Translations under genes and position numbers: made by a program | Shown: piece by piece, positions 12,103-37,393 of the stretch | Layout of the letters: each line of letters opens with the position of its first letter | Position numbering within the stretch: position 1 is the stretch's first letter | The notes under the pieces: model-generated | Databases searched by the model: none | The model's input: only the letters and a program-made list of their open reading frames with translations | Told to the model about the DNA's origin: nothing | DNA from: an uncultured delta proteobacterium | GTDB taxonomy: Bacteria; Myxococcota_A; Polyangia; Polyangiales; Houyiibacteriaceae | DNA length: 64,000 bases | Direction: 5' to 3' | Assembly (NCBI GenBank): GCA_963699755.1 | Contig: CAVOVB010000003.1 | Location: 224,001 to 288,000 of the forward strand

Positions 12103-13500
12103 CTACGGGACGTCGGCCGGGCAGAAGACGTTGGCACAGAGCGTCTTGGTGCAGGCGCCGTCGGTCGCATCGACGCAGATCTCGTCCTGGCCGGGGCGGT
12201 CGCAGATGTAGATCGCATCTTGGAAGACCACGTTCGGCGATTGCGGGCAGTCCAGGGTGATTTCCGGGCAGCTCATGTTTTCAGTGTCCTCGAAGCTACC
12301 AAAGAGCGCGCTCAAGGTGAGCTCTAGCGGGAAGGGTTTCTGGTCGGTGTCCCAGCCGCGCGTTTGGACGGTCGTCCAGTTCTGCCCCGGCGGGATGGTC
12401 GAGGGATTCAAGTTGATGACGTTCAGATTCGGGCAGAGGTTCCGTGCGACATCGCTTGGGCAGTCGATCTCCATGCAACGCTTCGCGTCCGGGAGCTCGA
12501 GACACCCTAGATCACCGTCGCTCACCTCCACGCAAACCTCGACGCGGCCGGGCTCACCGCAGCGAAAGGTCGTTTCGGCCGCGAGCGGGTCCCCGAAACC
12601 GCCCCCTTCCGAGGTCCACTTGAGAGTCAGGGTCTCTGGGAATTCGTCCGGGTCCACCGCCGCGACGGCAATGGCGCTCGTGTCCTCTCCGCGTGGAATC
12701 GGGTTGGGGTCCGCGCTCATGCTTTCGATGATCGGGCAGGTATTTTCCGCTGACTCCCCCGGGCAGCGAACGGACTCACAGAGAGTGTCGCTGCAGACGC
12801 CATCGGAGGCCTCCACGCAGATCGAGATCACGCCGCCGAAATTCGGGTCGCAAGTGTAGGTCGTCTCGCGCGCATTCGGATCGGCGAATGTTCCGTGACG
12901 TGCCGTGAGCGTGGTGGCGAGCGCATTTGGATTGTCGTCAGGGTCATTGGCGACAATCGTAATCGAAGCGGTCCCTCCCTCGGGAACGGTCATCGGGGGC
13001 ATGGGGTCGATCGAGAGGCTCGACACCTCCGGGCATACGTTCTTCGTATCGGGACAGTCTACGACAGTGCAGCTCCGCTCAGAGCACTCGATCGGCTCGG
13101 GGAGGCGAACGTGCGACCGACGAACGTACTCTAGGACCGAAGCGACGCCTGGAACCTCGCTCGGGGTGCCGCTTTCAGGATCCGCATCGACGTACACCGT
13201 CGTGACGCAGATATCGACAGGACCAGAGACGTCATAGGCGCAGGCGTAGGTCGTTTCGCGTGCAAACGGGTCGGCGAACGTGCCGCTAATCGCCGAAAGC
13301 TCGGTCTTGACGACAAGCCCGTCGACGGCCCAGGGCACGTGCACGTCGACGAAGACGCTCGTCTCGCCGAGCCCCTCGGGGATCATCGCGGGATCGGCCG
13401 TGACCGAGCCCTGCGGACAAATGGAATCGCCGCCCCGACACCCGAGGATCAACAGGGCGGAACAAAGCACCGCGGTACTTATCGTTCGGACAACGGGCAT
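12103..13500 (-). CDS. Cys-rich lipoprotein of about 4 tandem Ig/PKD-like repeats
   Basis: Lipobox ILGC; repeated CP...DP...GxFxDPxAxETT(Y/F)xC...GxVxICV...SDG...C units. Confidence 0.85.
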   Translation of the reverse strand: MPVVRTISTAVLCSALLILGCRGGDSICPQGSVTADPAMIPEGLGETSVFVDVHVPWAVDGLVVKTELSAISGTFADPFARETTYACAYDVSGPVDICVTTVYVDADPESGTPSEVPGVASVLEYVRRSHVRLPEPIECSERSCTVVDCPDTKNVCPEVSSLSIDPMPPMTVPEGGTASITIVANDPDDNPNALATTLTARHGTFADPNARETTYTCDPNFGGVISICVEASDGVCSDTLCESVRCPGESAENTCPIIESMSADPNPIPRGEDTSAIAVAAVDPDEFPETLTLKWTSEGGGFGDPLAAETTFRCGEPGRVEVCVEVSDGDLGCLELPDAKRCMEIDCPSDVARNLCPNLNVINLNPSTIPPGQNWTTVQTRGWDTDQKPFPLELTLSALFGSFEDTENMSCPEITLDCPQSPNVVFQDAIYICDRPGQDEICVDATDGACTKTLCANVFCPADVP

Positions 13501-13586
13501 CGGACGCGATCCGTTTTATCAGATCGACCTCCAGATTGCGCTATCAAATCGTTCGGTCTGCAAACCCCAAAACACCTTCAGAGACC

Positions 13587-13602
13587 TGTGAGGCGCATCA
13601 CC
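13587..13602. promoter_or_regulatory. CRP-type box (1 mismatch)
   Basis: TGTGA-GGCGCA-TCACC between divergent lipoprotein genes. Confidence 0.6.
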
Positions 13603-13890
13603 GATCTTCGACGTTACCAAGCGAGCTCCGCGCCTTTTCGATGGGCTTCCTCGGTTACCCCTGCGTACCTTGTATGTGTCCGTTTTCGACTAGTCGCGGT
13701 CGATGCCATGTCCGTTTCCGGCAAGGTCCGAGAAACGAGATTTCCGGCCACTGCGATCTCCAGGAATTGGCGCGACGTCGCGTTGCACGGCACGCTTCGA
13801 CCTCTTGACCTTGAATTGCGTCGCGAAATAGCGACACTTCGGGATTCTTGCGCGAGGCCTCAGTTCCCCATAATCATGGAGTAGACGAAG

Positions 13891-14529
13891 ATGACCGACC
13901 GACACGCTTATTTGACGAACATCTTATTCATCGCGACCTGCCTGGCTGTCGGCTGCACCAGCGGGGGAAACCTCGGCTGCGGCAGTGACAGCGGCAGCAC
14001 GAGCACGCCCAGCCTCGACACCCAGCTGCTTGGTATCTACGGGCTCGACACGTATCAAAAGAGCGAGGACAGCTGCGACAACCTGGTGGACGTGGAAGGC
14101 GCTCCGAGTCGCCTTGCGCTTTACACCGTCCGCGCGACTGACGACCCCAACAAGGCCGTGATGGTGGGCCAGTTCTGCGGCAGTGCGCTCGATTGCCGGA
14201 GGAGGGTGGAGGATTTCCCCCAGCTCTTCAGCTACACGTTCCTGCAGGGGAGCGACGCAAGCGAATGGCAAGGCTGGGGGATCGCGAGCCAGGGAATGGC
14301 GGGCGATGAGTGTCTGGTCGAGGTACAGACCCACGTTCTGACTTCAGATGCGAACCGCGCGATCCGGATCGACACGAAGCAAGTGGAAACGCGGTACGAC
14401 TCGTCCGAGCCAGCGCCGGGTTCCAATGAGGTGACCTGCACCATCAGGGCTGCGATCGCTGCAATCAGCAGCGACTCGCCGTGCACCGTACAATTCCTTC
14501 TCGAAGCGACGTTCGAAGCGGAGCTTTGA
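13891..14529 (+). CDS. Hypothetical lipoprotein
   Basis: GGAG RBS; lipobox AVGC; several Cys. Confidence 0.8.
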   Translation: MTDRHAYLTNILFIATCLAVGCTSGGNLGCGSDSGSTSTPSLDTQLLGIYGLDTYQKSEDSCDNLVDVEGAPSRLALYTVRATDDPNKAVMVGQFCGSALDCRRRVEDFPQLFSYTFLQGSDASEWQGWGIASQGMAGDECLVEVQTHVLTSDANRAIRIDTKQVETRYDSSEPAPGSNEVTCTIRAAIAAISSDSPCTVQFLLEATFEAEL

Positions 14530-14534
14530 GAGAG

Positions 14535-14553
14535 CGCCCGGCCGACTCGGGCG
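14535..14553. terminator. Short hairpin between convergent genes
   Basis: CGCCCG-GCCGACT-CGGGCG, no U-tract. Confidence 0.3.
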
Positions 14554-14556
14554 GGC

Positions 14557-16377
14557 CTACTCGAAGCGGTTGGTTCGTACCTTGTAACCGTTGTCGCTCG
14601 ACTGCTGCCAAATCGAATGCGCGTGGCGACCTTCGTCCACGGCGATCTGGGGAGCGCGCGCCGAGGACGCGAAGTTCTCGATGCGTTCGGCCGAGCTGGG
14701 TACCCAGCTGTTGTCAGGGTCGATCCGATTGGACCAGATGGTTCGATAGCTGTCCCAAATCTGATTCCAGACGACAAAGACGTTGCCGGCTCGGTTGACC
14801 CCGACGCGGGGCGTGGTGGCATCGCCGTCTTCGTTCGGATCATCGTTCGGAGGCTCGATGAGATCTGGCGTACCCCAGCCCGGCCCTGGAGTGTACTCCG
14901 CGACCCAGATGTTCTTGAAAGCGCCGTCGTCCTGCGACCAAACAGCGTAAGCATTCCCATCCCGGTCGACCGCGATGTCGGGGCCTGTCTTGTCGCCGCC
15001 ATCGTACCCGTCGATTCTGGTTGGCTCGGCATCCCACTCGCCTCCCGAAAAGCGAGTGGCGTAGATATCGACGCGTAGCTCGGGAACGCCAGCGCCGCCC
15101 ACGCCGCCCACGCCGCCTACGCCGCCAGCGCCACCGGTGCCACCAGCGCCGCCAGCGCCACCGGTGCCTCCTCCGTCGCTGCGGTTGTCCTGCATCCAAA
15201 TCACCAACGCGTCGCCGTTCGCCCCCACAGCGAGCTGAAAGCCGTCGGCGCTCGTGTCCTCATCCGATTTGATCGCTTGGGCAGTGCCCCAACCCGAACC
15301 GGGCGTATAGCGGTTGGTCCAGAGGACTCTGCCGCCTTCCCCCGCAGGTCCCGCTCGCCGATCCCAGACCGCGATGGCCCCGCCTTGATCGTCCATCCGA
15401 ACCGCAGTTCTGTCCGCCACAGCAGCCGCTGCTGGCGCGTCGATCGTTTCGGCGTCTCCCCAGCCGGTGTCGGGATCATAGCGAATGGCCCGAACGTCCT
15501 CTCGTCCGGTATCGAGGTTGTTCTGCACCCAGACGGCGGTAGCGTTGCCCGAAGGGTCTGCAGCGACCGACGGCAGTTTGGCGCGCGTCACGTCGCCGTT
15601 CTGCAGAAGCGCCGGCGTTCCCCAGCTTCCGGCTTCGACGTCGTAGCGGTTCGCCCAGATCTTCTGGTCGGAGCTCACAAGGTCGCCGCGCTGCCAGACC
15701 GCGAAGCTGTTTCCGGCGCCGTCCGAAGCGACTCTGGGCCGGGTCGCACGGCCGTTGCCGTCGTCGATCGGCTCCGGTTGCTCGCTCCAGAGACCAGTGC
15801 GCGTGTACCGGTTGGCGAAGATGAAGGTATCTCCAAGCCCATCTTCGAGCACCCAGACCGCGACGGCCCCGAGCTGTCCATCGACCGCAATTTGCTGCGC
15901 AGTGGACTCCCAGTTGCCAAGCGGCTCTTCGAGCCATTCGGGCTTCCCCCAGGCGGCGTCGATGGTCTTGAACGTCCACTGGTAGTCTTCTTTGAGGCTC
16001 GTGCCACCGAAGGACTGGAGCTCCGTGGTGACCGTCACCGTGTAGTTAGTGAGAACCTCGAGCGAGTCCTCGGGAACGAGCTCCGCCGCCGTTCCCATCA
16101 CGCCCGGGTCGGCATTCGGCTCGTCCAAGATGCGGACCGTGCTGGGCACCAGCGTGCCGTCTTCGTCGGCGAGGAAGAACGCACCCTGGAGGGTCGCAGG
16201 ATTGATCGCCGCGTTCATCCGAACCGCGACAGTCGTATCGACGATGACGTCTTCGGCGCCGTTTGCTGGAACGATCTGCTCGACTTCGAGGAAGGCAACG
16301 CCGCTGCCGCCGCCTTTGCAGGCGGCCACGAAACACAAGGAACCAAGCAACACAGAAGCAAGCAAACCAAATTTCAT
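14557..16377 (-). CDS. Lipoprotein with Big_5/SbsA-type Ig domain and beta-propeller-like repeats
   Basis: AGGAGG RBS; lipobox VAAC; VPANGAEDV...YTVTVT...YQWTFKT; repeats of VAxDxxGNAxAVW...IWANRY...GWG. Confidence 0.85.
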   Translation of the reverse strand: MKFGLLASVLLGSLCFVAACKGGGSGVAFLEVEQIVPANGAEDVIVDTTVAVRMNAAINPATLQGAFFLADEDGTLVPSTVRILDEPNADPGVMGTAAELVPEDSLEVLTNYTVTVTTELQSFGGTSLKEDYQWTFKTIDAAWGKPEWLEEPLGNWESTAQQIAVDGQLGAVAVWVLEDGLGDTFIFANRYTRTGLWSEQPEPIDDGNGRATRPRVASDGAGNSFAVWQRGDLVSSDQKIWANRYDVEAGSWGTPALLQNGDVTRAKLPSVAADPSGNATAVWVQNNLDTGREDVRAIRYDPDTGWGDAETIDAPAAAAVADRTAVRMDDQGGAIAVWDRRAGPAGEGGRVLWTNRYTPGSGWGTAQAIKSDEDTSADGFQLAVGANGDALVIWMQDNRSDGGGTGGAGGAGGTGGAGGVGGVGGVGGAGVPELRVDIYATRFSGGEWDAEPTRIDGYDGGDKTGPDIAVDRDGNAYAVWSQDDGAFKNIWVAEYTPGPGWGTPDLIEPPNDDPNEDGDATTPRVGVNRAGNVFVVWNQIWDSYRTIWSNRIDPDNSWVPSSAERIENFASSARAPQIAVDEGRHAHSIWQQSSDNGYKVRTNRFE

Positions 16378-16438
16378 AAGACCTCCTGAACGACCCGCGA
16401 CACCTGTGATATCACAGCTCTCGCGTCGCTGCATGGGT

Positions 16439-19321
16439 TCAGCGGCGACGGCGTGACCGTCGAACGGCGAGCCCGGCGACCAAGATGAACATCAGCGCGG
16501 CCAGATTGCCTTTGCTCGATGCGCCGATGCGACTTGCCGCACAGGTGACCGTGTCGTTGAAATCGAGCAGCGTGTCGTTGTCGCGATCGATGCCCATGCG
16601 CCTGCCCGAGCCCGGTGGCACGCAGGTGAAGGTCACCGCCTGCCCGGGCTGCTGCGCGGCCGTGAGCAACTGTGCCTTCGTCCAGAGGGAATCTCCCACC
16701 AGGTCGCTCTCGAAGTTGTTTCCGCCGACGTAGAGCCAGCCGCGTTGTTCGTCGTTGACGACGCCCTTGGCGATCAAATCGCACTCTTTGACATCGCCGA
16801 GCGTGGGATCGGTATAGTACGTCGCATTCGCGCGCTGAATGAGCAGGTCGACGCGTGCAAGCATCGCCGAGCCGGTGTTGGCGGTCACGGTCGTCTGCTG
16901 GCCGACGATCGGCGCCAGGTCGCTGTCGAACTCCATGATCAAGGCCTCGAGGTTGCGCTTCTGGGTCGTGTTCAGGTTGAACACGTCGGCACTCAGGAAA
17001 TTGAACACGGTCGAGACGCCGCCATCATGTAGGAAGCCGGTGCCGCGAACCTGGTCCCCCATGAAGGAGCCATCGATGTTCGTGAAGAAGTCGGACGGCG
17101 CCTGACCGAACATGCCAACCTTCTGATAGGCGTTGCGGAGGTGCGCCACCTTGAACTCCATCTCCTCGTTCTCGAAGGTCGAAAATCCGGCGGTCCCAAA
17201 GAAACCCTGCGAACGATCGAAGTGGTGACAGCCCCGACAGGCAGCTACCGTGTCGGTGAGCGGCCCGTTCGCCGGGTTCCCCTGCGCATCGAAGCCAAAG
17301 GTGATCTTACCGGAGGCGGCTGCCGGGCTTAGCGAGTTGTCGAGCGCGCGGATTGGGTTCGGCGGGTAGGTGAGCTCAAGCACGAAGTCGGTGAAGTTCT
17401 GCATATCGGCCGGATCGAGCTCCCCTTCATCGCGCCCGATCAAGCCCGGGAAGGCCACGTTGAACTCGTTGAAGGCACGGTTGGCGCATGCCGGGTCCGA
17501 AGGTGTCGTTGCGCACTCGGGTCCCGTGCGGTCGCCTCGCCAGTGCATCGGCCCAGCCTTGGCCATGCCGCGGAAGCTCTGCGTCGTCATCGGGCCCTTG
17601 AGCGGGTCGAAGTCCTGGAGTCCCGGAAGGAAGCCGAGCAGGGGGAATTCGTTCGTCGGCGGTCTGGGATTCGGGTTTGCTGTCGGCGAGGCATCGGGAT
17701 CGCCGAGGTCCCAGGACAGGTCGTCCATGTCGCCGAAGACGTGACAGCCGGCGCAGCTGGCTTCGCCATTGCTGGAGGTGAGCTTGGTGTCGTAGAGGAA
17801 GTCACGCCCGGTCTTGATGAAGAGTGGCTCGGGGTTGTATCGGCCCGCGCCGATCGTGACGAAGCGGTCGCTCAGCCGGACGCTGTACACGGTATTGGTG
17901 CGGCGGCTCGATACCCAGAGAAAGCCGCGCGCTTCGTCCAGGACGAGCCCGGTCGGGCCCTCGATCGGAATCATGTTGGCGGCGCTCGGAACGAAGGTGT
18001 CGTTTTCGAGTTGCGCGGTGTCGTAGATCGCCACGGTGTTCGAGCCGAAGCCTGCCACATAGAGCGTCGTTCCATCGCTGCTGACGGCCATGTTCAATGG
18101 GGTGGCGATGCTCTTTTCTTTGACGCCCGCAGGAACGGGGCTGACGCCGTACGGTATGTGCTTGTTGAGGTGCCGTGGGGTGACGTTGCCCTGCGCGTCG
18201 ATGACGGTGATTCGGGCCTGATGCAAATTCCCGCGTACCGTTGCTGGGTCACCGGAGGGCTTGGGGCCGAGCTGATTGACGTAGTCGCCAAAGCCTTCGA
18301 ATCGAACCCGGTTTTGCGCGTCGGTGTTCGTGACGTAAAGCTTTCCGTTCGCCGGATTGACGATCATGTTGAAGAGGATCGTGCCGACGCCCGAAAACGA
18401 TTGGATCTCGCTCGGAGTCGCTGCGTTCGCATCGATTTTGAACACATCCAGGTCGGGGAGAGAGAAGCGGACGGCGGGGTTCCAGTTGTTCCCCATCTCG
18501 TCTTCCCAGCGACCGTTGGCTTCGTTGTAGCCGACGATGATTCCCGTTTCCCGGCTGGTGATGCCTTGGAAGTTGGTTTCCGGAAGCGGACGGCCGGCCG
18601 GGTAGGTCGTTCCCTCGATGTTGCAGGGGGCGGAGCCGTTGCAGACGAGGCCCTCGTTGATGGTGACGGTCCGATTCCCCGAGCGGTACACCGCGGCGTA
18701 GACCGTCGAGCCGTCGGGGGACGCGGTCAGCGCGCGAGGACGGTCGCCGAAGAGCCGGATGACCGTGAGCGGATTGCCTTGGAGCGAAGAGCCGAGATTG
18801 TTTGCATTGAAGACCCACACATCTGCACGACCTGTGCCCGGCACGTCATAGTCCCCATCGGGCCAGGGTGTGTTCTGTCCGCGGTGTGCAGTCGCGATGA
18901 AAGCACGGTTCCCGCCGGGACCCGCGAAGACGATGCCGCGAGGCTCATCCCCGACCAGCAGCGTACGGACGACGCGCGGTGGGTCGGACGCGACGTCGAC
19001 GACGCTCACGCTGTCCGAGAGATGATTGACCACCCAGACCTCGGAGTCGTTTCGCACGGCGACGGAGACCGGCTCGAGGCCCACGGGCACCAAGGCCAGG
19101 CTGGTGAGCCTCCCGGCCGGCGTCGGTTCGAAGATCTCCAAGGTGCCGTCCGGCGTATTGACCGCGAAGAGGCGAGTGCCGTCGGGCGACATCGCGATCG
19201 GAGTCACCGGGTCCGACTCGAAAAGGGTGTAGGGGGATAGCTGTGCAGCGGCGGGCGCTGGCTGCAAGACGGCGATCGGACACAGGACGAGAATCAGGAC
19301 CAAGAGATCGAGCTTGCGCAC
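16439..19321 (-). CDS. YVTN/YncE beta-propeller fused to di-heme cytochrome c peroxidase-like domain, with C-terminal sorting tail
   Basis: GGAGG + GTG start; signal peptide (AAA-Q); SPDGTRLFAVN and VGLEPVSVA repeats; CAGCH and CRGCH; tail CAAS...hydrophobic helix...RRSRRRR. Confidence 0.85.
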   Translation of the reverse strand: MRKLDLLVLILVLCPIAVLQPAPAAAQLSPYTLFESDPVTPIAMSPDGTRLFAVNTPDGTLEIFEPTPAGRLTSLALVPVGLEPVSVAVRNDSEVWVVNHLSDSVSVVDVASDPPRVVRTLLVGDEPRGIVFAGPGGNRAFIATAHRGQNTPWPDGDYDVPGTGRADVWVFNANNLGSSLQGNPLTVIRLFGDRPRALTASPDGSTVYAAVYRSGNRTVTINEGLVCNGSAPCNIEGTTYPAGRPLPETNFQGITSRETGIIVGYNEANGRWEDEMGNNWNPAVRFSLPDLDVFKIDANAATPSEIQSFSGVGTILFNMIVNPANGKLYVTNTDAQNRVRFEGFGDYVNQLGPKPSGDPATVRGNLHQARITVIDAQGNVTPRHLNKHIPYGVSPVPAGVKEKSIATPLNMAVSSDGTTLYVAGFGSNTVAIYDTAQLENDTFVPSAANMIPIEGPTGLVLDEARGFLWVSSRRTNTVYSVRLSDRFVTIGAGRYNPEPLFIKTGRDFLYDTKLTSSNGEASCAGCHVFGDMDDLSWDLGDPDASPTANPNPRPPTNEFPLLGFLPGLQDFDPLKGPMTTQSFRGMAKAGPMHWRGDRTGPECATTPSDPACANRAFNEFNVAFPGLIGRDEGELDPADMQNFTDFVLELTYPPNPIRALDNSLSPAAASGKITFGFDAQGNPANGPLTDTVAACRGCHHFDRSQGFFGTAGFSTFENEEMEFKVAHLRNAYQKVGMFGQAPSDFFTNIDGSFMGDQVRGTGFLHDGGVSTVFNFLSADVFNLNTTQKRNLEALIMEFDSDLAPIVGQQTTVTANTGSAMLARVDLLIQRANATYYTDPTLGDVKECDLIAKGVVNDEQRGWLYVGGNNFESDLVGDSLWTKAQLLTAAQQPGQAVTFTCVPPGSGRRMGIDRDNDTLLDFNDTVTCAASRIGASSKGNLAALMFILVAGLAVRRSRRRR

Positions 19322-19500
19322 GATGCACCTCCACGACGGGTATGAAATGAAACGGACCAAGTAAGGTGATGACCCTATCACCATCGGCCGGGTCGCGCCA
19401 AGCGCGTCAGCATCGACTCTCCGGGTCGCTGCACCATTTGCCGAAACGCCCCTGAAGCGGGGGCCGTCAGGCCTGACTCGGACGGACCCGTTGGCGCTCT

Positions 19501-19573
19501 TAAACGCAAGAACCCGCGCACCTGAGCACGCGGGTTCTTGCAGTGATGCTGCGCCTAGGCAGCGCTGGTCGGG
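19501..19573 (-). terminator. Conserved two-hairpin 3' element / terminator, copy 1
   Basis: 13-bp stem GCAAGAACCCGCG/CGCGGGTTCTTGC (19506-19541) plus GCTGC/GCAGC hairpin (19548-19563). Confidence 0.75.
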
Positions 19574-20311
19574 TCAGGGGACCGTGATGTCCACGCCCGT
19601 GCCCTCGACGTCGAAGGTGCAGACCGACTCATCGACCGTGATGAGCGGGTTGCCACCGAGCGTGAGGTCGAGCGCGTAGGTGCCGTCCCAGTTCACGTTG
19701 TAGGTCGAACCAGAGGCACCGGTTGGGGTGACAGCCGCGCTTCCCTCGGTGATCTCACCAGGGGTGCCGATCGATAGGACGTCTCCGGTGGTGAAGGCAC
19801 CAATCGTCTGGCCCGTCGCTCCCGCCGTCAGCTCACTCTCGATGGGACCGCCCGTGGCGTCGGTGAGCACCGCCGCGATCGCCAGACCGCCAAGCTCAGC
19901 CGCGTTGCCCAAGGTCGGCAGCAAGAACTGCTGCGCTGCGACCGTCCACCCAGTGGTGACATTGTTCGAAGCATCGGCGGCCACATCCAAAGTGATCGTG
20001 ACACTGAGGTTGATGCTCGTGTTGAGCGCCGTCACGAAGACTTCGCAACCGCCGCCCGTGGCAGTCGGCCCACCGTTGGACCCCGCCGGTGTGGTGTTGG
20101 CTTCCCAGACCGTCGTACCACTGGCTCCACCACCGTCACCGCCGGTACCGCCTTCGCCGCCGCCACCGCCGCTGCCTGTGCTACCGCCGCTGCCGGTGCT
20201 GCCACCGCTGCCGGTGCTACCGCCGCTACCCGGCGGGGTGCTTTCATCATCCCCGCAGCCGAACATCGTCAGCGCGGCTCCGAGACCCAAAATCAATACT
20301 GTCTTTTTCAT
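19574..20311 (-). CDS. Lipoprotein: Gly-rich linker + one copy of the unrecognised ~175-aa domain
   Basis: GAGGA RBS; MKK...MFGC lipobox; FLLPTLGNAAELG and VNWDG...LTLGGNPL motifs. Confidence 0.9.
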   Translation of the reverse strand: MKKTVLILGLGAALTMFGCGDDESTPPGSGGSTGSGGSTGSGGSTGSGGGGGEGGTGGDGGGASGTTVWEANTTPAGSNGGPTATGGGCEVFVTALNTSINLSVTITLDVAADASNNVTTGWTVAAQQFLLPTLGNAAELGGLAIAAVLTDATGGPIESELTAGATGQTIGAFTTGDVLSIGTPGEITEGSAAVTPTGASGSTYNVNWDGTYALDLTLGGNPLITVDESVCTFDVEGTGVDITVP

Positions 20312-20418: not shown

Positions 20419-20491
20419 TTAAACGAAGAACCCGCGTGCCTGGGCGCGCGGGCTCTCACAGTGATGCTGCGATGGGCAGCTTTGTCTCGGG
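20419..20491 (-). terminator. Conserved two-hairpin 3' element / terminator, copy 2
   Basis: AGAACCCGCGTGCC...GGCGCGCGGGCTCT-CACAGTGAT-GCTGC-GATGG-GCAGC. Confidence 0.7.
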
Positions 20492-22318: not shown

Positions 22319-22352
22319 GGGGGCCTCCATAAAACTCTCTTGGGGGAGGACG

Positions 22353-26589: not shown

Positions 26590-26658
26590 TAACGAGAAAA
26601 CCCGCGAGCCGAAGCCCGCGGGTCTCTCAGTGTGTCGCTGCTTAGCAGCGTGTTGGCG
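26590..26658 (-). terminator. Conserved two-hairpin 3' element / terminator, copy 3
   Basis: Minus strand GAGAGACCCGCGGGC-TTCG-GCTCGCGGGTTTTCTC (cUUCGg loop), preceded by CGCTGC-TAA-GCAGCG. Confidence 0.75.
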
Positions 26659-28857: not shown

Positions 28858-28905
28858 TCTTTCGCTCCTTGAATTGGATAAATCACTACGACTAGCGCAG
28901 CGGTT

Positions 28906-28921
28906 CGTGAACGGGTTCACG
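28906..28921. promoter_or_regulatory. CRP-type box in predicted 5' leader
   Basis: CGTGA-ACGGGT-TCACG. Confidence 0.5.
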
Positions 28922-29310: not shown

Positions 29311-29970
29311 CTACTGAATGAGGATCGTGCCCGAGCCGACGCGTGGGGTTGTCCCGAGATCGACACAGGTGCCGTCGATCTGAATGACTTCGCCGTTTTC
29401 GATCAGTGTTCGGTCGTACGGCTCATTGACGCCGCAGGGACGAGCGTCAGGCTCGTCGGAGCATTGGGCGAGGTCGAAGACCACCGAGCGCGCGTCGCAA
29501 TCAAGGCCACACAAGGTCAGCCTCATGAAAAAGCGGCCTCGCGTGCCTGGGTCGGTTTCGAGCAGGAGCGAGATCACTTCGTTCCCGGGGGTCTCGACCT
29601 CGTCGACGAAGACCACGTCGCTAGGCGTTGAGGTGTTGACCAGCTCGACCTTGACGCGGCGCGTGGCGCGATTGACGGTGACCTCGGCCTCGATCGGTGC
29701 TCCCGGGCTCGCCTGGGCCTGCCCCACCGTGGATTGCACCGCGATGCCCGTGAGCAGGAAGATGGGCGGGCTCTGCGCGGGCAGGTCCGGCTGGTCGGCG
29801 GGGAAGCTCGGCTGAATGCAGCCGCCGCCCACCCCGCCGTCGAAGCCGATGTTGATCACGTTCGTGGGCTGACGTGCGCCGCCGCCGGCATCCTTACAAC
29901 TGATCAGAAACGAGCAGACGACGGGAATGAAGAAGAGAGCTAGCGCGGAACGCAGTGGATTAAGTTTCAT
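29311..29970 (-). CDS. Hypothetical lipoprotein
   Basis: AAGGA RBS; MKLNPL...LISC lipobox. Confidence 0.8.
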   Translation of the reverse strand: MKLNPLRSALALFFIPVVCSFLISCKDAGGGARQPTNVINIGFDGGVGGGCIQPSFPADQPDLPAQSPPIFLLTGIAVQSTVGQAQASPGAPIEAEVTVNRATRRVKVELVNTSTPSDVVFVDEVETPGNEVISLLLETDPGTRGRFFMRLTLCGLDCDARSVVFDLAQCSDEPDARPCGVNEPYDRTLIENGEVIQIDGTCVDLGTTPRVGSGTILIQ

Positions 29971-29995
29971 AACGGTCCTTTGGGGAGAATTGACA

Positions 29996-30024
29996 AGACT
30001 AGACGGACATGCCTTTGAGCTCAA
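29996..30024 (-). promoter_or_regulatory. Putative sigma70-type promoter
   Basis: Minus strand TTGAGC-N17-TAGTCT. Confidence 0.5.
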
Positions 30025-30033
30025 GGGGACTCG

Positions 30034-30663
30034 CTAGTCGGACGGCCTGACAGGAAAGCGGGTCGTGAATCCGCGCAGCTCAGCACTGATGCAATCGGTC
30101 GGCACCTCGACATCGCCGAGGACAAGAGAGATCTGCTCGAGTGCGAGGGCGAGCTCGACTTCGCTGGCGCCCTCCATCGCTGAGGTCGCGGTCGTTGCGG
30201 GGTCTAGCTCGATGCGATGCGGGCCCGCGACTCCGTTCTGGTCGGTGTCGAGCGTGAGGTCGAGGTCGTTGACCCCGTTCGTCAAGGAAGCTTCGAGCAT
30301 CGAAGGGGTCGCGCCATCGAGCGAGGTCGTGATCTCAATCGAATTGACGTCGATGACGTCGAATCCATCGTCGATCAAGGCGAGTGACGCGACTTCGTCG
30401 AAGATCACCGAAGCGGAAAAGGTCAGGTCGACTGAGGTGGCTACGGTGTACGGAGCGCTCAGCAGGTAGGCAAGCTCGATGGTAATGTCGAGAAGCAAGG
30501 GATCGCGGTCGACGGTATCGATCGTACAGCGCAGGGTATAAGAGCCTTCTTGCATCAAAGCGCTTCCGCCGCTTCCGCCAGCCCCGTGTGCTTCGCCATT
30601 GTCGTCGGCGCAGCTCCAGAGCACCGCAAGCAGGAGCAACGAACCATGACCGAGAAGCCTCAT
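30034..30663 (-). CDS. Hypothetical acidic beta-rich lipoprotein
   Basis: MRLLGH...LWSC lipobox, short Gly linker, one Cys pair near the domain ends. Confidence 0.8.
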   Translation of the reverse strand: MRLLGHGSLLLLAVLWSCADDNGEAHGAGGSGGSALMQEGSYTLRCTIDTVDRDPLLLDITIELAYLLSAPYTVATSVDLTFSASVIFDEVASLALIDDGFDVIDVNSIEITTSLDGATPSMLEASLTNGVNDLDLTLDTDQNGVAGPHRIELDPATTATSAMEGASEVELALALEQISLVLGDVEVPTDCISAELRGFTTRFPVRPSD

Positions 30664-30778
30664 CGCGCCGAGCTTGGCGCGCCGCGGGCCGGTCAGCAAT
30701 GTCACCGGCGAGGAACCTCATGACCGTTTCTGGCGATCCCAGGCGTCGGCACCGGTCGTCGCACCCTGTCGGAGGGTG

Positions 30779-30872: not shown

Positions 30873-30923
30873 CCTCGCCTCCCGTCTCTTGAAACTTGGG
30901 CACTGCCCTGCCCACTGAAATTG

Positions 30924-32729
30924 ATGTCGCAAAACTCCTTCATTCGAATGGTAGTGCTGTCCTCTGCCGCATTGTGCGCGGCATGTGACGGTGGCGGCCC
31001 CGCAACGTCAGCCACGGACGCCTCCGACGAGACCGAGATCAATCTCGTCATTTCTGATCCAGCGACGGCAGCGGAAGATCTCGCGATGCTGATCGATTTC
31101 GTGAGCTACCGGATCAGCTGTCCAGCAAGCGGCGAGACCCCTTACGACGACTCGGTCGACATCAGCGGGGTCTTTGAAAGCCATCTGGATCAAAACCCGG
31201 CGGTTTGGACATTGGTTTCAGACCTTCCGCTTTCGCAGTGCACGATCGCGCTCTGGGTCTTCTACGAGGACGAGGTCGTCTGCTCGGGGAGTCAAGCGCT
31301 GCTCATCGCGGAGAACGAACCCTCGGCGCCCAACAAAATCAACATCGACCTCGAGTGCAGTCTCAGCGTGATCCCGCCGTCGGGCGACCTGGACATCGAC
31401 AGCTCGTTCAACCTGGTACACGGCAACTACTGCCCACAGCTCTTTTGGCTGGGCGCGTATCCATCACCCGACCCGACGGTGATGAACGTCCAGACTTCGT
31501 ACATCGACCTCGACGGCACCTGTGGTCAGAACTGCGATCCGACGATCTGCGATTTCACCGCGAACCCTCCGGTCTGTAACCCGGCTCCGGACCCCGGCCT
31601 GTCCAGCACACTCACCGCGCCGGCTGGCAATGGCAGCTTCGGTGACGTCACCGCGACCGACACGACCTATGCCTGCGACCCGCTCTTGCCAGGTCCAACC
31701 GAGATCTGCGTCTTGGTGAGCGACGGGGACAACGACTGTGACCGGATGCGCTGCATCACCATCGAATGCCCAGACCTGTGTGAAGGCGTGGACTGCAGCG
31801 ATGGAAACGAATGCACGCGGGACCTCTGTAACCCGCTCGACGGCTCGTGCAGCAACGTCGACGCGCCCGACGGGATTGCGTGCAATGCTTGCAACGACAC
31901 CTGTCAGTCGGGTGCGTGCGACCCGGGCGTGCCGTTCACTGCGGTTCAGACGGGCGATGACATGATCCTCAGTTCCACCCAGCAGCAGTACAGCGCCACC
32001 CTGGTCAACCCATACAGCGGCGCATCGGTTCCGGTGAGCGGCAACTTCCAAGTGAACAACTCTTCGTACATGGGCATTGGCGCAGCCGACGTCCTCTCGG
32101 GGAGCTCCACAGGAGGCAACCGGAGCGAGATTCTGCTGATCCGAGACACCGTGTATCCCCAAACCGTTTGTGGTGTTGAAACCGTTCGTGGGCTGAATGG
32201 TTTCGACGTGATGTTCCTTGCCGACGATTTCATCGTGCTCATCGACATGCTGATCGAAGGCGGGAACACCAACGACATTCTATGGGCCAATGCGGGTGAT
32301 GATACGCTGCGAGGAGAGAACGGGACCGATCTCCTCGACGGCGGGCCAGGCAACGACATCATCGAGGGTGGGAACGGCGACGACACGATCACGCTCTGGC
32401 CCGGCAGCGGCTTCGACAGCATCTCGGGTGGCGACAACACGGACCGGGTGGAAATTGACGCCATCCAAAGTCAGATCACCATCGGCCCGGCGGCGAACCC
32501 GAGCTATGCGTTCGACCTCAGTTACCTCGGTACGCCGATGGCCCAGATCAGGGAGGTCGAGCTGCTCGTCATGAATGACGCGTTCATCGACCTGGCCACG
32601 TGTACGGGCGGCGCCGGCGACGTCTGCAAGCTCTGTGGCAACGATGCCCTCAACGGGGGCGAAGGTTGCGACGATGGCAATAACCTCGACGGAGATGGCT
32701 GCGCGGCGGACTGCACGGCCGAGTACTAA
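30924..32729 (+). CDS. Lipoprotein: N-module type B + RTX-like Ca-binding repeats + myxobacterial Cys-rich repeat
   Basis: Lipobox CAAC; GGNTNDIL, AGDDTLRGENGTDLLDGGPGNDIIEGGNGDDTI; C-terminal CGNDALNGGEGCDDGNNLDGDGCAADC. Confidence 0.88.
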   Translation: MSQNSFIRMVVLSSAALCAACDGGGPATSATDASDETEINLVISDPATAAEDLAMLIDFVSYRISCPASGETPYDDSVDISGVFESHLDQNPAVWTLVSDLPLSQCTIALWVFYEDEVVCSGSQALLIAENEPSAPNKINIDLECSLSVIPPSGDLDIDSSFNLVHGNYCPQLFWLGAYPSPDPTVMNVQTSYIDLDGTCGQNCDPTICDFTANPPVCNPAPDPGLSSTLTAPAGNGSFGDVTATDTTYACDPLLPGPTEICVLVSDGDNDCDRMRCITIECPDLCEGVDCSDGNECTRDLCNPLDGSCSNVDAPDGIACNACNDTCQSGACDPGVPFTAVQTGDDMILSSTQQQYSATLVNPYSGASVPVSGNFQVNNSSYMGIGAADVLSGSSTGGNRSEILLIRDTVYPQTVCGVETVRGLNGFDVMFLADDFIVLIDMLIEGGNTNDILWANAGDDTLRGENGTDLLDGGPGNDIIEGGNGDDTITLWPGSGFDSISGGDNTDRVEIDAIQSQITIGPAANPSYAFDLSYLGTPMAQIREVELLVMNDAFIDLATCTGGAGDVCKLCGNDALNGGEGCDDGNNLDGDGCAADCTAEY

Positions 32730-32731
32730 AC

Positions 32732-32747
32732 TATGATCTTCCTCACA
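32732..32747. promoter_or_regulatory. CRP-type box (1 mismatch)
   Basis: TATGA-TCTTCC-TCACA upstream of the 1504-aa gene. Confidence 0.55.
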
Positions 32748-32878
32748 GTGAATGGTGTACGTGACGCGACCACCCCCCTCGTTGGGGCTTGTCAGGTTCT
32801 ACCCATTGCTGCGATAACGAACCTCCCCGTTTGCGCGAGTGCCCCCTGCGCTCACGCCCCAGCATCCCGGATTGATCC

Positions 32879-35800
32879 ATGAGTCTACGCTTCATAGCTT
32901 TGGTTGCGCTGCTGTTTGTATTCGTCGCCGCATGCGACCAGTCGAATATCAGCATCGACGGAAAATCACCCACAGCCGCCGTGACCGTGACGGTTGCGCT
33001 GACGGCCTCCGAGGTTGGCGCCGCCACCCTGACGTACTGGGTCGACCATCCGACCGAGCTGGACACGCCGCTCACGGGAACAATCGGCGTAACCGATCCG
33101 ACTACCAGCTTTCGGCTGACGCAGCTTCCGGTCGCCAACGGCTACACGCTCGTCATGATCGCGTACAAGCCAAGCGGCGAAGCGTTCTGTGATGGGACTA
33201 CGAGCTTCGACATCCAAGAAGGCGTGACGACGATCGTGGACACGGAGCTCACCTGTCCGACGAGCGACACCTTGCCGGACGGCGAGGTGGGCGTCGACGT
33301 CACCTTCCAGCTCAACTTCTGTCCGGTGGTCGAAGTGATCGCGGCGACTCCGGAAATCACCGTCCTGATGAACCCGATCGCGTTGTCGGTGACGTCGAAC
33401 GACCCGGACAACACCGCAGCGCTCACCTACGCCTGGAGCGCGACGAACGGGACCATCACGAACCCAACCGCACCCAGCGCGAACTATATTTGCCAGACCA
33501 TCGGGGATCACACGGTGACTCTCGCTGTCAGCGACAGCGATCCGGCCTGTGACCAGGAACGCCAGCTTCTGGTCAGCTGCACGGCGGACCCGAGCTGCGG
33601 CAACGGAACCCGAGAGATCACCGAGTTCTGCGACGACGGCGTCAACGATGGCGGCGAAGGCGAATGCCTGAACTGCACCACGATTCAGATCTGTGGCGAT
33701 GGCATCCGGAACGGCGACGAAGAATGCGACGATAGCGGACAGACCGCCGGGTGCGACGTCGACTGTACCTTTGCGGCATGCCAGGACGGCACCTTGAACA
33801 TCAGCGCTGGCGAGATCTGCGACGATGGTGCGCAGTCCGCGACCTGCGACACGGACTGCACGGCGGCCCTCTGTGGTGATGGGGTCGTCAATACCGACGC
33901 TGGAGAGACCTGCGACACGGGCGGGCCCAGCCCGACCTGCACCGCGGAGTGTCTGGGCACCTCCTGCGGGGACGGCGTCATCAACCTTGCCGCTGGTGAG
34001 CAATGTGACGACGCGGGGGAGAGCGCCACCTGCAATCTCGACTGCAGCGTTGCCGTCTGCGGGGACGGCAAGGTCAACGCCACGGCCGGAGAAGCCTGTG
34101 ACGATGCCGGCGAAAGTCCGTCGTGTAACGTCGACTGCAGCGTTGCCGTCTGCCCCGACGGCATTTTGAACACCACCGCGGGCGAAGTCTGCGACGACGG
34201 TGTCGCGAACGGCACAGGCCCGGGGCTTTGCGAGCCAGGCTGCGCCGCGCCGAGGTCTTGTGGAAACGGCAGCGTCGAGACCGGCGAGGAATGCGACACG
34301 GGAACGGCCACGGCGGGCTGCGATGCCAACTGCACCCTGGCGATTTGCGGGGACGGTACGTTCAATGCCGCCGCGGGCGAGCAGTGCGATGGTGGGGGGG
34401 AGACTGGCTCTTGTGACACCGATTGCACGAACGCGATCTGCCAGGATGGGACCTACAACCCCTCGGCCGGCGAGGCCTGCGACGACGGCGGGGAAAGCGT
34501 GGGGTGCGACATTGATTGCACCCCTGCCGAGTGCGGCGACGGTGTCCGAAACGCCACCGCCGGCGAGGCCTGCGACGCCGGGGGCGAGAGCGCGTTGTGC
34601 GACGATGACTGTACGCTGGCTATCTGCGGAGACGGCAAGCTCAACACGACCGCTGGCGAGCTCTGCGACGACGGCGGCGAGAGCGCGACCTGCGACGATG
34701 ATTGCACGCCCGCGATTTGTCCCGACGGCAAGCTCAATACCACCGCGGGCGAAGCCTGCGATGACGGCGTGGCCGACGGCACGGGGCCTGGCTCCTGCGA
34801 GCCACTTTGCGCTGCGCCCGCGAACTGTGGGAACGGCCTGATCGAGACCGGAGAGATCTGCGATACCGCGGGCGAGAGCGCGACCTGCAACGCCGACTGC
34901 ACGCCTTGGCAGTGTGGTGACGGAAAGCTCAATGTGAGCGCAGGGGAGCAGTGCGACAAGGGAGGCGAGACCGCCACCTGCAATAGCGATTGCACCACCG
35001 CCCAGTGTGGCGATGGAAAGCTCAACGTCGCCGCGGGTGAGATTTGTGACGAGGGCGCGAACACGGCGACGTGCGATGCCGACTGTACGCTGCCCATTTG
35101 CCCGGACAACTTCTTGAACACGGCCGCTGGCGAAGAGTGCGATACGGGTGGCGAGAGCGCGGCCTGCGATGCCGACTGCACCTTCCCGGTATGCCCGGAC
35201 AACTACTTGAACGAGGCCGCAGGCGAGGTCTGTGATGACGGCGTTGCGAACGGCAGCGGCCCAGGCCTGTGCGAGCCTCTTTGTGCGGCCCCAGGCTCTT
35301 GCGGCAACCTAATCGTGGAAACCGGAGAGGACTGCGACCCCGGTACCCAGACCGCAAACTGTGACAACGACTGCAGCTTTGCCGCATGTGGCGACGGCGC
35401 GCTCAACATCGCGGCTGGCGAGCAATGCGATACCGGCGGAGAGAGCGGCACCTGTGATGCGAACTGCACCATTGCGGTCTGCGGCGACGGTACGATCAAT
35501 GCCGCGGCCGGCGAGACCTGCGACGACAGCGGCCAAAGCGCCAACTGCGACGTCGATTGCACCGCCGCTTCCTGCGGTGATGGCGTCACCAACACAGCCG
35601 CTGGCGAGCAATGCGACGATAGCGGCTTCAGCACGACTTGTGACAACGACTGCACCACGGCGAGCTGCGGAGACTCCACGGTCAACAGCCTCCGTGGGGA
35701 GACCTGTGACGAAGGAGGTCAGACCGCGACCTGTGACGACGACTGCACCGTTCCGCAGTGCGGCGATGGCAACACGAACTTCGCGGCGGGCGAGCAGTGT

Positions 35801-37393
35801 GACGATGCCGGAGCGAGCACCTTCTGCAACGCCGATTGCACGCTCGCGGCCTGCGGCGACCTCGATGTGAACCCCCTGGCCGGTGAGGAGTGCGACGAAG
35901 GTGGCGTCCAGACCGCGACCTGCGAGGCCACTTGCACCTCGCCCGCCTGTGGCGACGGCATTCCGAACGCACTGGCCGGCGAGACCTGCGATACCGGCGG
36001 CAACAGCGTCAGCTGCGATAGCGACTGCACGGTGCCGCTCTGTGGGGACGGTCTGACCAACGACTTGGCGAACGAAGACTGCGACGACTCGGGCGAGTCC
36101 GCTACATGCGACGCCGACTGCAGCTTTGCGGTCTGCGGCGATGCGGTGCTCAACACCCTGGCCGGGGAGACCTGCGACACGGGCGGCAACAGCGTCAGCT
36201 GTGATAGCGACTGCACGGCCCCGCAATGCGGCGACGGCTTGACCAACGCCGCGGCAAGTGAGGCCTGCGACGACGGTGGAGAGAGCGTCGGCTGCGACGC
36301 CGATTGCACAGCGGTGGTCTGTGGTGATTCGACCGTGAACACGACCGCGGGCGAGCAGTGCGACACCGGCGGCGTCCAGACGGCAAGCTGCGAGACCAGC
36401 TGCACCACGCCAGTCTGCGGTGACGGGACTCTGAACACCTTGGCTGGCGAGGCCTGCGACGATGGGAACACCGCCCCAGGCGACGGCTGTAACGCCTCGT
36501 GCGTGGTGGAGTTCTGTGGCGACAACATCGTCAACAACGTCACCGAGGCCTGCGACAGCGGCGGCGTCCAAACGGCAAGCTGCGAGGCCGACTGCACCGC
36601 GCCTGCGTGTGGCGACGGGACGCTCAACGCGCTGGCTGGAGAGGCCTGCGACGACGGGAACACCGCGCCGGGCGACGGCTGCAGCGCGACCTGCGTGGTG
36701 GAGTTCTGCGGCGACGGCAGCATCAACAACGGCGGCACCGAGGCCTGCGACGACGGGAACACCACCTCGGGCGACGGCTGCAGCGCGACTTGCGTGGTGG
36801 AGTTCTGCGGCGACGGCAGCATCAACAACGGCGGCACCGAGGCCTGCGACGACGGGAACACCACCTCGGGCGACGGCTGCAGCGCGACTTGCGTGGTGGA
36901 GTTCTGCGGCGACGGCAGCATCAACAACGGCGGCACCGAGGCCTGCGACGACGGGAACACCACCTCGGGCGACGGCTGCAGCGCGACTTGCGTGGTGGAG
37001 TTCTGCGGCGACGGCAGCATCAACAACGGCGGCACCGAGGCCTGCGACGACGGGAACACCACCTCGGGCGACGGCTGCAGCGCGACTTGCGTGGTGGAGT
37101 TCTGCGGTGACGGCAGCATCAACAACGGCGGCACCGAGGCCTGCGACGACGGGAACACCACCTCGGGCGATGGCTGCAGCGCCAGCTGCGTGGTGGAGTT
37201 CTGCGGCGACGGCATCGTGAACAATGGCGGCACCGAGGATTGCGACAGCGGCGTCGAGACGAGCATCTGCGACCTCGACTGTACCTTCGCCATCTGTGGT
37301 GACGGGACGGTGAACGCCACCAAAGGCGAGACCTGCGATGATGGCAACAGCGTTCCGGGCGATGGCTGTGATCAGTTCTGCATGACGGAGTGA
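32879..37393 (+). CDS. Giant Cys-rich lipoprotein: N-module + Ig/PKD-like + about 40 myxobacterial disulfide (DUF4215-like) repeats
   Basis: Lipobox VAAC; repeats C(G/P/Q)DGxxNxxAGExCDxGG...CxxxC from 33596 to the end. Confidence 0.92.
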   Translation: MSLRFIALVALLFVFVAACDQSNISIDGKSPTAAVTVTVALTASEVGAATLTYWVDHPTELDTPLTGTIGVTDPTTSFRLTQLPVANGYTLVMIAYKPSGEAFCDGTTSFDIQEGVTTIVDTELTCPTSDTLPDGEVGVDVTFQLNFCPVVEVIAATPEITVLMNPIALSVTSNDPDNTAALTYAWSATNGTITNPTAPSANYICQTIGDHTVTLAVSDSDPACDQERQLLVSCTADPSCGNGTREITEFCDDGVNDGGEGECLNCTTIQICGDGIRNGDEECDDSGQTAGCDVDCTFAACQDGTLNISAGEICDDGAQSATCDTDCTAALCGDGVVNTDAGETCDTGGPSPTCTAECLGTSCGDGVINLAAGEQCDDAGESATCNLDCSVAVCGDGKVNATAGEACDDAGESPSCNVDCSVAVCPDGILNTTAGEVCDDGVANGTGPGLCEPGCAAPRSCGNGSVETGEECDTGTATAGCDANCTLAICGDGTFNAAAGEQCDGGGETGSCDTDCTNAICQDGTYNPSAGEACDDGGESVGCDIDCTPAECGDGVRNATAGEACDAGGESALCDDDCTLAICGDGKLNTTAGELCDDGGESATCDDDCTPAICPDGKLNTTAGEACDDGVADGTGPGSCEPLCAAPANCGNGLIETGEICDTAGESATCNADCTPWQCGDGKLNVSAGEQCDKGGETATCNSDCTTAQCGDGKLNVAAGEICDEGANTATCDADCTLPICPDNFLNTAAGEECDTGGESAACDADCTFPVCPDNYLNEAAGEVCDDGVANGSGPGLCEPLCAAPGSCGNLIVETGEDCDPGTQTANCDNDCSFAACGDGALNIAAGEQCDTGGESGTCDANCTIAVCGDGTINAAAGETCDDSGQSANCDVDCTAASCGDGVTNTAAGEQCDDSGFSTTCDNDCTTASCGDSTVNSLRGETCDEGGQTATCDDDCTVPQCGDGNTNFAAGEQCDDAGASTFCNADCTLAACGDLDVNPLAGEECDEGGVQTATCEATCTSPACGDGIPNALAGETCDTGGNSVSCDSDCTVPLCGDGLTNDLANEDCDDSGESATCDADCSFAVCGDAVLNTLAGETCDTGGNSVSCDSDCTAPQCGDGLTNAAASEACDDGGESVGCDADCTAVVCGDSTVNTTAGEQCDTGGVQTASCETSCTTPVCGDGTLNTLAGEACDDGNTAPGDGCNASCVVEFCGDNIVNNVTEACDSGGVQTASCEADCTAPACGDGTLNALAGEACDDGNTAPGDGCSATCVVEFCGDGSINNGGTEACDDGNTTSGDGCSATCVVEFCGDGSINNGGTEACDDGNTTSGDGCSATCVVEFCGDGSINNGGTEACDDGNTTSGDGCSATCVVEFCGDGSINNGGTEACDDGNTTSGDGCSATCVVEFCGDGSINNGGTEACDDGNTTSGDGCSASCVVEFCGDGIVNNGGTEDCDSGVETSICDLDCTFAICGDGTVNATKGETCDDGNSVPGDGCDQFCMTE
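36692..37186 (+). repeat. Five near-perfect 99-bp coding tandem repeats
   Basis: Units at 36692, 36791, 36890, 36989 and 37088 encoding CVVEFCGDGSINNGGTEACDDGNTTSGDGCSA(T/S). Confidence 0.95.

Follow-up and report, generated by a model that had tools for sequence, protein, structure and literature searches.

What is built by a run of exported proteins that share an N-terminal part and differ in what follows it: a surface structure of a new kind, or a set of independently anchored proteins? This question is raised by an island of genes at positions 12103–37393 of a 64,000-nucleotide stretch (here called the window; contig CAVOVB010000003.1 of assembly GCA_963699755.1) from a sediment metagenome-assembled genome (MAG) of an uncultured member of the Myxococcota. 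The window has a G+C content of ~64%, and all 12 consecutive long open reading frames (ORFs) of the island show coding-type G+C at third codon positions (GC3). An initial annotation, made from the sequence alone, had described 12 exported proteins of which 11 carry a lipobox, and the same count was obtained here, with a hydrophobic stretch leading to x-x-[GAS]-C in 11 of the 12. The ORFs are labeled g1–g12, g0 denotes a related lipoprotein outside the island span, and window coordinates are used throughout (Table 1). With a confidence slightly above even, we read the island as a set of envelope-anchored modular lipoproteins in which a conserved base and spacers carry interchangeable payloads. 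What is new here is the base as a unit and one C-terminal domain, the head, both absent from the libraries searched, together with their cassette-like evolution, and not a new machine.

The base had been recognized in six proteins (g0, g6, g7, g8, g11, and g12) by two motifs. The second of these, G-x-[VL]-x-[VLI] followed by N-[IFY]-C-[PA], was found by regular expression in all six, and the first, C-x5-F-[DN]-[IV]-x7-V-x5-C, is exact in five of them; g11 deviates. An all-against-all BLASTP comparison reproduced the proposed grouping into a type A (genes given as starting at 3420, 22318, and, more distantly, 32879; g0, g6, and g12) and a type B (26239, 28857, and 30924; g7, g8, and, more distantly, g11). 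Within type A, g0 and g6 are 44% identical over 268 aa (E = 2e-40) and g12 and g6 are 32% identical over 176 aa (E = 7e-17); within type B, the values are 84% over 434 aa for g7 and g8 and 28% over 434 aa (E = 7e-26) for g11 and g8. BLASTP matches between the types were no better than about E = 1e-5. When a 40-row type-A alignment was compared with a 30-row type-B alignment using hhalign, the probability was 99.8% (E = 1.4e-28). That alignment also takes in the signal peptides and Cys-rich spacers; it is convincing in the latter half of domain 1, at the linker motif, and over the final strands of domain 2. Judged by these profiles, types A and B are homologous, as the initial annotation had held. 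The most conserved stretch of the type-A base is the linker GGVRVNGKFNIC, in which G110, R113, G116, N119, and C121 are invariant; by eye, it reads as a short hairpin within one chain (V-R-V / N-G / K-F-N-I) followed by the family-invariant Cys.

An AlphaFold2 model of the base (g6 residues 27–240, with 40 homologs) consists of two β-sandwich domains (residues ~20–105 and 121–210), with a mean predicted local distance difference test score (pLDDT) of 75.3 and a predicted template modeling score (pTM) of 0.44. Pfam identifies the second domain as a member of the PKD family (PF00801 / PF18911): g12 exceeds the cut-off of 23.5 bits with a score of 24.0 bits, g6 falls just under it at 21.5 bits, and PF00801 is precomputed on many homologs of the type-A base. 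A Foldseek search of the PDB with the base model returned 76 matches at E ≤ 1e-3, all of them generic tandem immunoglobulin (Ig)-type pairs with TM-scores of ~0.3, including the PKD region of SorCS2, EC1-2 of E- and P-cadherin, FN3 modules of CbhA, intimin D0-D1, the S-layer protein SbsB, and a Bacteroides B12-binding lipoprotein. As modeled, the base is a tandem Ig-like and PKD-like pair of ordinary fold.

The distribution of the base was examined in metagenome proteins and in sequenced relatives. The type-A query matched 231 metagenome proteins, the top row being the window's own protein, and the best 120 are 54–100% identical over the whole module; the type-B query matched 118, many of them only in part. 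A lipobox-like signal precedes the base in 111 of the best 120 of the 231 type-A matches and in 88 of the 118 type-B matches. Among the matches listed, those with a named organism are nearly all MAGs of Myxococcales, Polyangiales, Myxococcota, or "Deltaproteobacteria". The Pfam families precomputed on these homologs differ widely, and many homologs have none. We take the accessions to stand for CBM_4_9, a phytase-like esterase, PhoX-like, EEP nuclease/phosphatase, Big_5, DUF4397, DUF7107, Dicty_CTDC, DUF4215, and RTX. In the genome under study, related bases lie N-terminal to a GH16 domain and to a weak GH17-like domain (contig C3, 62.9–73.4 kb). At E ≤ 1e-10, the type-A base was found in 18 of 301 genomes of the phylum, among them all 14 sampled congeners (2–10 matches each); outside the genus, it occurs in one of four other genera of the family and in one genome each of two other families. 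These results show that the base is genus-typical and is reused ahead of enzymes and binding-type domains. The proposed architecture, in which a conserved base is followed by variable payloads on stalks of different length, is supported, and both base types recur with diverse payloads in metagenome proteins of Myxococcota. Because the base also carries enzymes (GH16, GH17-like, EEP nuclease/phosphatase, phytase-like, and PhoX-like), its cargo fits a display pedestal better than a pilin.

The C3 locus (L014, C3:62866–73360) comprises three lipoproteins with base-related domains. One has the GH16 domain, the second has the weak GH17-like domain behind Cys-rich spacers, and the third has an unassigned C-terminal domain; together they are possibly a β-glucan (laminarin)-degrading surface set.

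The payloads in the window are as the initial annotation described them: a Gly-rich tail (g0), one or three copies of a domain then without a name (the head), RTX repeats (g11), and a Cys-rich stalk of about 40 units (g12). The RTX repeats (PF00353) score 42.2 bits against a cut-off of 23 and lie in two stretches. In the g12 stalk, a regular expression counted 38 units with a spacing of 31–34 aa and two double gaps, which gives ~40 units; the stalk belongs to DUF4215 (178.9 bits; cut-off, 27) and to TIGR02232 myxo_disulf_rpt (202.3 bits; cut-off, 20.8), and the C-terminus of g11 matches DUF4215/TIGR02232 at 28.7 bits. Cys-rich spacers separate the base from the head, g7 giving a weak match to Dicty_CTDC, and in g5 the head stands behind nothing but a lipobox and a Gly-rich linker. 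The head matches no curated family. As a correction to the initial annotation, known families account for the Cys-rich stalk, for the RTX repeats, and for the PKD-like portion of the base. The g12 stalk and the g11 C-terminus clearly belong to DUF4215/TIGR02232 ("Myxococcus cysteine-rich repeat"), known from surface proteins, as is the PKD domain that the second base domain resembles; these families cover single pieces, not the base as a unit and not the head. A literature search for DUF4215 returned diatom work only, and a broad search of the literature on Myxococcota lipoproteins returned nothing specific.

The head comprises ~180 residues; g5, g6, and g8 have one copy each and g7 has three, and these six copies are 55–70% identical. 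The initial annotation had not singled out g5 as a bearer of this domain. Two more copies are encoded elsewhere in the genome: a copy on contig C1 that follows a lipobox and a Gly linker, and a divergent copy on contig C7. A profile search of 1,835,955,588 representative proteins found 52 at E ≤ 1e-3, of which 35 reach E ≤ 1e-10. There was no match in Pfam or NCBIfam, nor in Pfam when 36 aligned members were scanned at E ≤ 1, and searches of the PDB with the sequence profile gave only chance-level rows (E ≥ 0.12). By these searches, the head is shown to be a rare family absent from the libraries searched. It is nearly always C-terminal, and in a deep alignment C29 and C171 are nearly invariant and are likely paired. 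The eighth copy in the genome, the one on C7 (C7:425722–426660, L017), is preceded by a Cys-rich region and by a signal peptide that lacks a canonical lipobox, and no branch in the head tree described below is longer than its own. A language-model lead assigned the head to DUF6801 (PF20611), with a protein atlas score of 0.91 for the g5 head. This lead was rejected: none of the 36 aligned heads matches DUF6801 at E ≤ 1, a search of this genome with the DUF6801 family model at E ≤ 1 detects no head, and a second atlas query with a head from the congener genome G014 did not reproduce it. No published literature on DUF6801 was found.

The structure of the head was predicted with high confidence from a 36-row alignment (mean pLDDT, 96.2; pTM, 0.91) and is an all-β sandwich with long strands. 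Foldseek returned nothing at E ≤ 1e-3, the best row being 3LSO at E = 4.6e-3. With an exhaustive structural aligner, 3LSO (residues 44–210), the N-terminal Ig-like domain of a "putative membrane anchored protein" of Corynebacterium diphtheriae, was again nearest, with Z scores of 8.8 and 9.2, root-mean-square deviations of 3.6 and 3.4 Å, 146 of 185 residues aligned, and 10–11% sequence identity. It stands ~2 Z units above the next neighbors, which are the NetF pore (6.9), a TcdA4 domain (6.6), the MspA rim (6.2), leukocidins (5.3), and V. cholerae cytolysin (5.1). The head sequence profile missed 3LSO in the PDB at E ≤ 10, and the protein itself is uncharacterized, comes from another phylum, and has another architecture; the one printed mention found is a figure legend that names an Ig-like domain. 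Because the aligner warns that a best Z of 7–8 is common for unmatched models, we treat 3LSO as the nearest fold and not as a demonstrated relative. The model shows a confidently predicted Ig-like β-sandwich.

Having defined both domains, we examined how they are arranged and exchanged among congeners (genomes G014, G003, G017, and G012). Counting this genome, the head was detected in five of the 25 genomes examined from the genus, and a search of 16 other families of the order, with one genome per family, did not find it. Clustering of the head genes in relatives, a check set beforehand, was seen in two congeners. In G014, the contiguous order is a g9-like gene, two genes for a type-B base with a head, a g3-like gene, one for a type-A base with a head, one for a lipobox, Gly/Met linker, and head, and a g2-like gene. 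In G003, a gene for a type-A base with a head and a second head gene adjoin g2-like and g1-like genes. These orders show that the four-gene head cluster (type B plus head, type B plus head, type A plus head, and linker plus head) is syntenic across species. The paralogs within a genome are nevertheless more alike than their positional counterparts in other species: type-B bases are 84% identical within this genome and 82% within G014, versus about 55% across species, and heads are 55–84% and 56–80% identical, respectively, versus 28–37% across species. A maximum-likelihood tree was built from 59 head domains. In it, the seven copies of this genome other than that on C7 form one clade with metagenome sequences (support, 100/99), all copies from G014, G003, and G017 fall in another (100/99), and the two G012 copies lie just outside this genome's clade, in a wider, less supported group. 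Metagenome orthologs of single g7 repeats interleave in the tree, and therefore the copies are not all recent.

Traces of copying remain in the DNA. The stretches 25104–26092 in g7 and 27782–28770 in g8 are 99.3% identical over 989 bp, and the rest of both genes is far more diverged; we read this tract as recent gene conversion. The head of g6 with 73 bp of its 3′ flank (20419–21063) is 94.7% identical over 647 bp to C1:301060–301705. One shared GC-rich, terminator-like hairpin lies 3′ of the heads in g5, g6, g8, and the C1 copy and not 3′ of that in g7, and because the same hairpin follows these four heads, the head seems to have been duplicated together with its flank. The head of g8 is closest to those of g6 and C1, and a 43-residue string quoted in the initial annotation is identical in g6 and g8. 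The view taken there, that g8 joins a g7-like base to a g6-like C-terminal domain, agrees with this string and with the 99.3% base tract, and g8 is best described, from its sequence, as a mosaic of the two. Taken together, the alignments show bases and heads to have been copied between paralogs, apparently by gene conversion. Pairwise ratios of nonsynonymous to synonymous substitution (dN/dS) are 0.22–0.50 for heads and 0.41–0.50 for bases. No head pair exceeds 1 in this gene-wide (not site-wise) comparison, so that positive selection on the heads is rejected gene-wide, and the range of 0.22–0.50 indicates that all copies are under purifying selection.

Short contigs that are 99–100% identical to parts of g5–g8 are present in four metatranscriptome-labeled runs from three studies of sediment and estuary samples, and a few also match g1, g3, g4, and g11. 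These contigs show neither strand nor level and may reflect DNA carry-over, and they establish the presence of the sequences only. One of them (run X9) joins 22588 to 24281 in g7, skipping 1692 bases, which would mean a g7 form containing fewer copies of the head or a repeat-induced collapse in the assembly.

In the reading that we favor, the order of parts would be a lipid anchor, a short tether, the two-domain Ig/PKD pedestal, a variable Gly- or disulfide-rich spacer, and a distal payload. The predicted location of the proteins is the cell envelope, probably its outer surface, with the payload held off the membrane; surface exposure is inferred because of the payload types and the long stalks. 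The base would serve as a pedestal or spacer, and the head would be a non-catalytic module that binds a particle, a polymer, or a cell surface and is displayed at different heights and valencies, with the copies within a genome kept alike through addressing the same target. The role of candidate adhesin, named in the initial annotation, is plausible. A comparable design is known in Bacteroidota. There, DUF1735, BACON, and the N-domains of SusE/F have been described (PMC11216935) as Ig-like modules that are restricted to a lineage, follow a lipoprotein signal, and precede diverse C-terminal modules. The base likewise is an N-terminal, lineage-restricted Ig-like β-sandwich directly behind a lipoprotein signal in multimodular proteins, is followed by many different binding and enzyme domains, and has many copies per genome. 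In contrast to these modules, it has no BACON or DUF1735 match in Pfam at E ≤ 0.01, consists of two domains (Ig-like and PKD-like) with a strongly conserved linker, occurs in one Myxococcota genus and few neighbors and not in polysaccharide utilization loci, and carries payloads that include Cys-rich stalks and the uncatalogued head. The likeness is therefore one of architecture and fold class only, an analogy.

Several observations weigh against this reading. Lipoproteins need not be exposed and may instead point into the periplasm or be vesicle cargo. The listed homologs of the type-A base (best 120 of 231, the query's own protein excluded) are 54–85% identical, and such conservation exceeds the needs of a passive spacer, so the base may also dock to something. 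This is suggested because the most conserved stretch of the base is the least confident part of its model (residues 107–120, pLDDT <50), and the poorly modeled linker leaves room for docking, for example with a sorting or anchoring partner. The deep head alignment lacks the strongly conserved aromatic platform typical of carbohydrate-binding modules, and the structural neighbors of the head at Z 5–7 are within the range that the aligner calls common. Finally, the genome is a MAG that was rated 100% complete with an estimated contamination of 9%; the relatives of the island in congeners argue that the island belongs to this lineage.

In a rival explanation, these would be ordinary outer-membrane lipoproteins that face the periplasm or are packed into vesicles, with the Ig/PKD base as a linker inside the envelope and without surface display. 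A lipobox alone does not imply exposure. In M. xanthus, Lys at +2 marks inner-membrane lipoproteins and Ala at +7 marks matrix lipoproteins. The head-bearing proteins have neither; these rules, taken from a distantly related species, show the inner-membrane mark to be absent and offer no positive sign of a surface location. We nevertheless regard a purely internal location as unlikely, as GH16, CBM_4_9, EEP, phytase-like, and RTX payloads normally act outside the cell and the long Gly- and Cys-rich stalks, with ~40 repeats in g12, are hard to fit in the periplasm. The likeness of the heads within a genome and the change of subfamily between species would fit a shared species-specific target or head-head recognition. 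The latter would make the heads homotypic, serving species-specific cell-cell recognition or self-adhesion in an inverted counterpart of TraA, with a variable head and a Cys-rich stalk tied by lipid to the outer membrane through a lipobox. TraA of Myxococcus xanthus (PMC3325183) has been described as having a PA14 head, a "rigid stalk" of Cys-rich repeats, and a MYXO-CTERM anchor, and both systems, which occur in Myxococcota, combine a head that is distal and variable with a stalk of Cys-rich repeats and a lipid-type outer-membrane anchor. They are opposite in polarity, with an N-terminal lipobox here versus the C-terminal MYXO-CTERM of TraA, and the head is not PA14 and the repeats are not TIGR04201; in g5–g8, no PA14 domain, TIGR04201 repeat, or MYXO-CTERM tag was found in Pfam or NCBIfam at E ≤ 0.01. 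The likeness of heads on type-A, type-B, and linker-only bases, their replacement by a different subfamily at the syntenic locus of a sister species, the recent conversion tracts, and the Cys-rich spacers with the Dicty_CTDC match all speak for homotypic recognition. The low dN/dS gives no sign of overall diversifying selection, the head is patchy in the genus, and likeness within a genome could equally mean a shared external ligand, which leaves this explanation quite unlikely in our estimate. The related and broader idea that the head cluster is a private recognition set, with self-recognition or adhesion to other cells or prey, and that the base doubles as a surface-docking element for 2–10 lipoproteins per genome is, to us, distinctly improbable as a whole. 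Under it, gene conversion would keep an Ig-like head alike on pedestals of different height, and another subfamily would replace that head in sister species.

The initial annotation had gone further and proposed that the base polymerizes by strand complementation into a lipoprotein fiber or lattice that displays the heads, conceptually like the type V pili of Bacteroidota. Type V pilins polymerize by donor-strand exchange once a protease has removed an N-terminal strand. Consistent with such a role, the highly conserved GxVxV...N-x-C stretch between the base domains has low confidence in the monomer model, and the generic Ig matches of the base include SbsB. The same stretch looks by eye like a single-chain hairpin, the base folds as an ordinary tandem pair and is fused to enzymes in many proteins, and g5, g6, and g8 are each followed by a separate terminator hairpin (the 3′ flank of g7 has none). 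Among the 13 proteins, there was no match to a type V pilin family of the FimA/Mfa1 class (Pfam and NCBIfam, E ≤ 0.01), and neither a protease site nor a donor strand could be identified from the island protein sequences. An oligomerizing, pilus-like base, complementation by the GxVxV strand, and a surface-layer system thus found no support, and we consider polymerization very unlikely. The least probable role for the head is that of a membrane-active or pore-forming module akin to the MspA cap/rim or to the hemolysin/leukocidin sandwich and used for contact-dependent attack on prey. NetF, the MspA rim, leukocidins, V. cholerae cytolysin, and TcdA4 are second-tier structural neighbors (Z 5.1–6.9; 4.9–6.9 for NetF, leukocidins, and α-hemolysin), a range that is common for unmatched models; Pfam and NCBIfam gave no match to Leukocidin or another toxin family, the head has 180 residues only and no separate stem region in the model, and no immunity-like gene follows the head genes among the window ORFs. 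A polymorphic-toxin arrangement, with a conserved lipoprotein N-terminal part, a variable C-terminal toxin, and an immunity gene, was also considered and rejected: the head is all-β and Ig-like, no small immunity-like ORF lies 3′ of the head genes, and many payloads of the base are nutrient-acquisition enzymes.

On present evidence, then, the island does not reveal a new kind of pilus or S-layer. With the base and head families, hundreds of proteins now called "hypothetical" in Myxococcota MAGs from marine and sediment sources can be given an annotation; the two families also suggest that this phylum arrived independently at the design of lipid anchor, Ig spacer, and variable payload that is best known from Bacteroidota. 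With its clear signs of cassette exchange and within-genome homogenization, the head cluster is a tractable case for studying the evolution of surface repertoires in uncultured predators and degraders.

Table 1. Genes and other features of the lipoprotein island and of g0, in window coordinates.
Feature	Position	Strand	Description
g0	3420..4535	+	Lipoprotein; type-A base and Gly-rich tail; outside 12103–37393
g1	12103..13500	-	Lipoprotein; ~4 PKD/Big_9-like repeats; ortholog adjoins head genes in G003
g2	13891..14529	+	Small lipoprotein; no family match; kept next to head genes in G014 and G003
g3	14557..16434	-	Lipoprotein; Big_5 and PDIAV-lipoprotein-like repeats; ortholog within G014 cluster
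g4	16439..19384	-	Exported β-propeller protein; sole non-lipoprotein among the 12
Terminator-like hairpin	19511..19534	-	3′ of g5; copied along with head cassette
g5	19574..20311	-	Lipobox, Gly-rich linker, one head (19577–20131)
Terminator-like hairpin	20429..20452	-	3′ of g6
g6	20492..22330	-	Type-A base (21611–22252), Gly linker, Cys-rich spacer, one head (20498–21046)
g7	22505..26239	-	Type-B base, Cys-rich spacers, three heads (24377–24904, 23618–24145, 22517–23050)
Near-identical tract in g7 base	25104..26092	-	989 bp; partner is 27782–28770 in g8
Terminator-like hairpin	26597..26622	-	3′ of g8
g8	26659..28920	-	Type-B base (27583–28794), Cys-rich spacer, one head (26665–27198)
g9	29311..30024	-	Small lipoprotein; no family match; ortholog at edge of G014 cluster
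g10	30034..30705	-	Small lipoprotein; no family match
g11	30921..32729	+	Divergent type-B base, RTX repeats, one C-terminal myxo_disulf repeat
g12	32879..37393	+	Divergent type-A base with PKD domain, then ~40 DUF4215/TIGR02232 Cys-rich repeats

Among the remaining genes, g4 encodes a protein whose N-terminus is signal-like but lacks a lipobox and whose C-terminal tail is hydrophobic and Arg-rich. This product of 981 aa has YVTN-type β-propeller repeats and two CxxCH motifs; the Cys, hydrophobic stretch, and Arg-rich tail at its C-terminus look by eye like a MYXO-CTERM-type sorting tag, for which a TIGR03901 match was not reported. A paralog of g4 with 69% DNA identity is located at C1:253769–256100, and g3 has at least five paralogous loci in the same genome (contigs C1, C2, C7, and C10). 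Elsewhere in the window, an operon on the plus strand at 45131–49612, unrelated to the island, encodes a circularly permuted ATP-grasp protein, an Alpha-E domain protein, and a GATase/transglutaminase-like protein.

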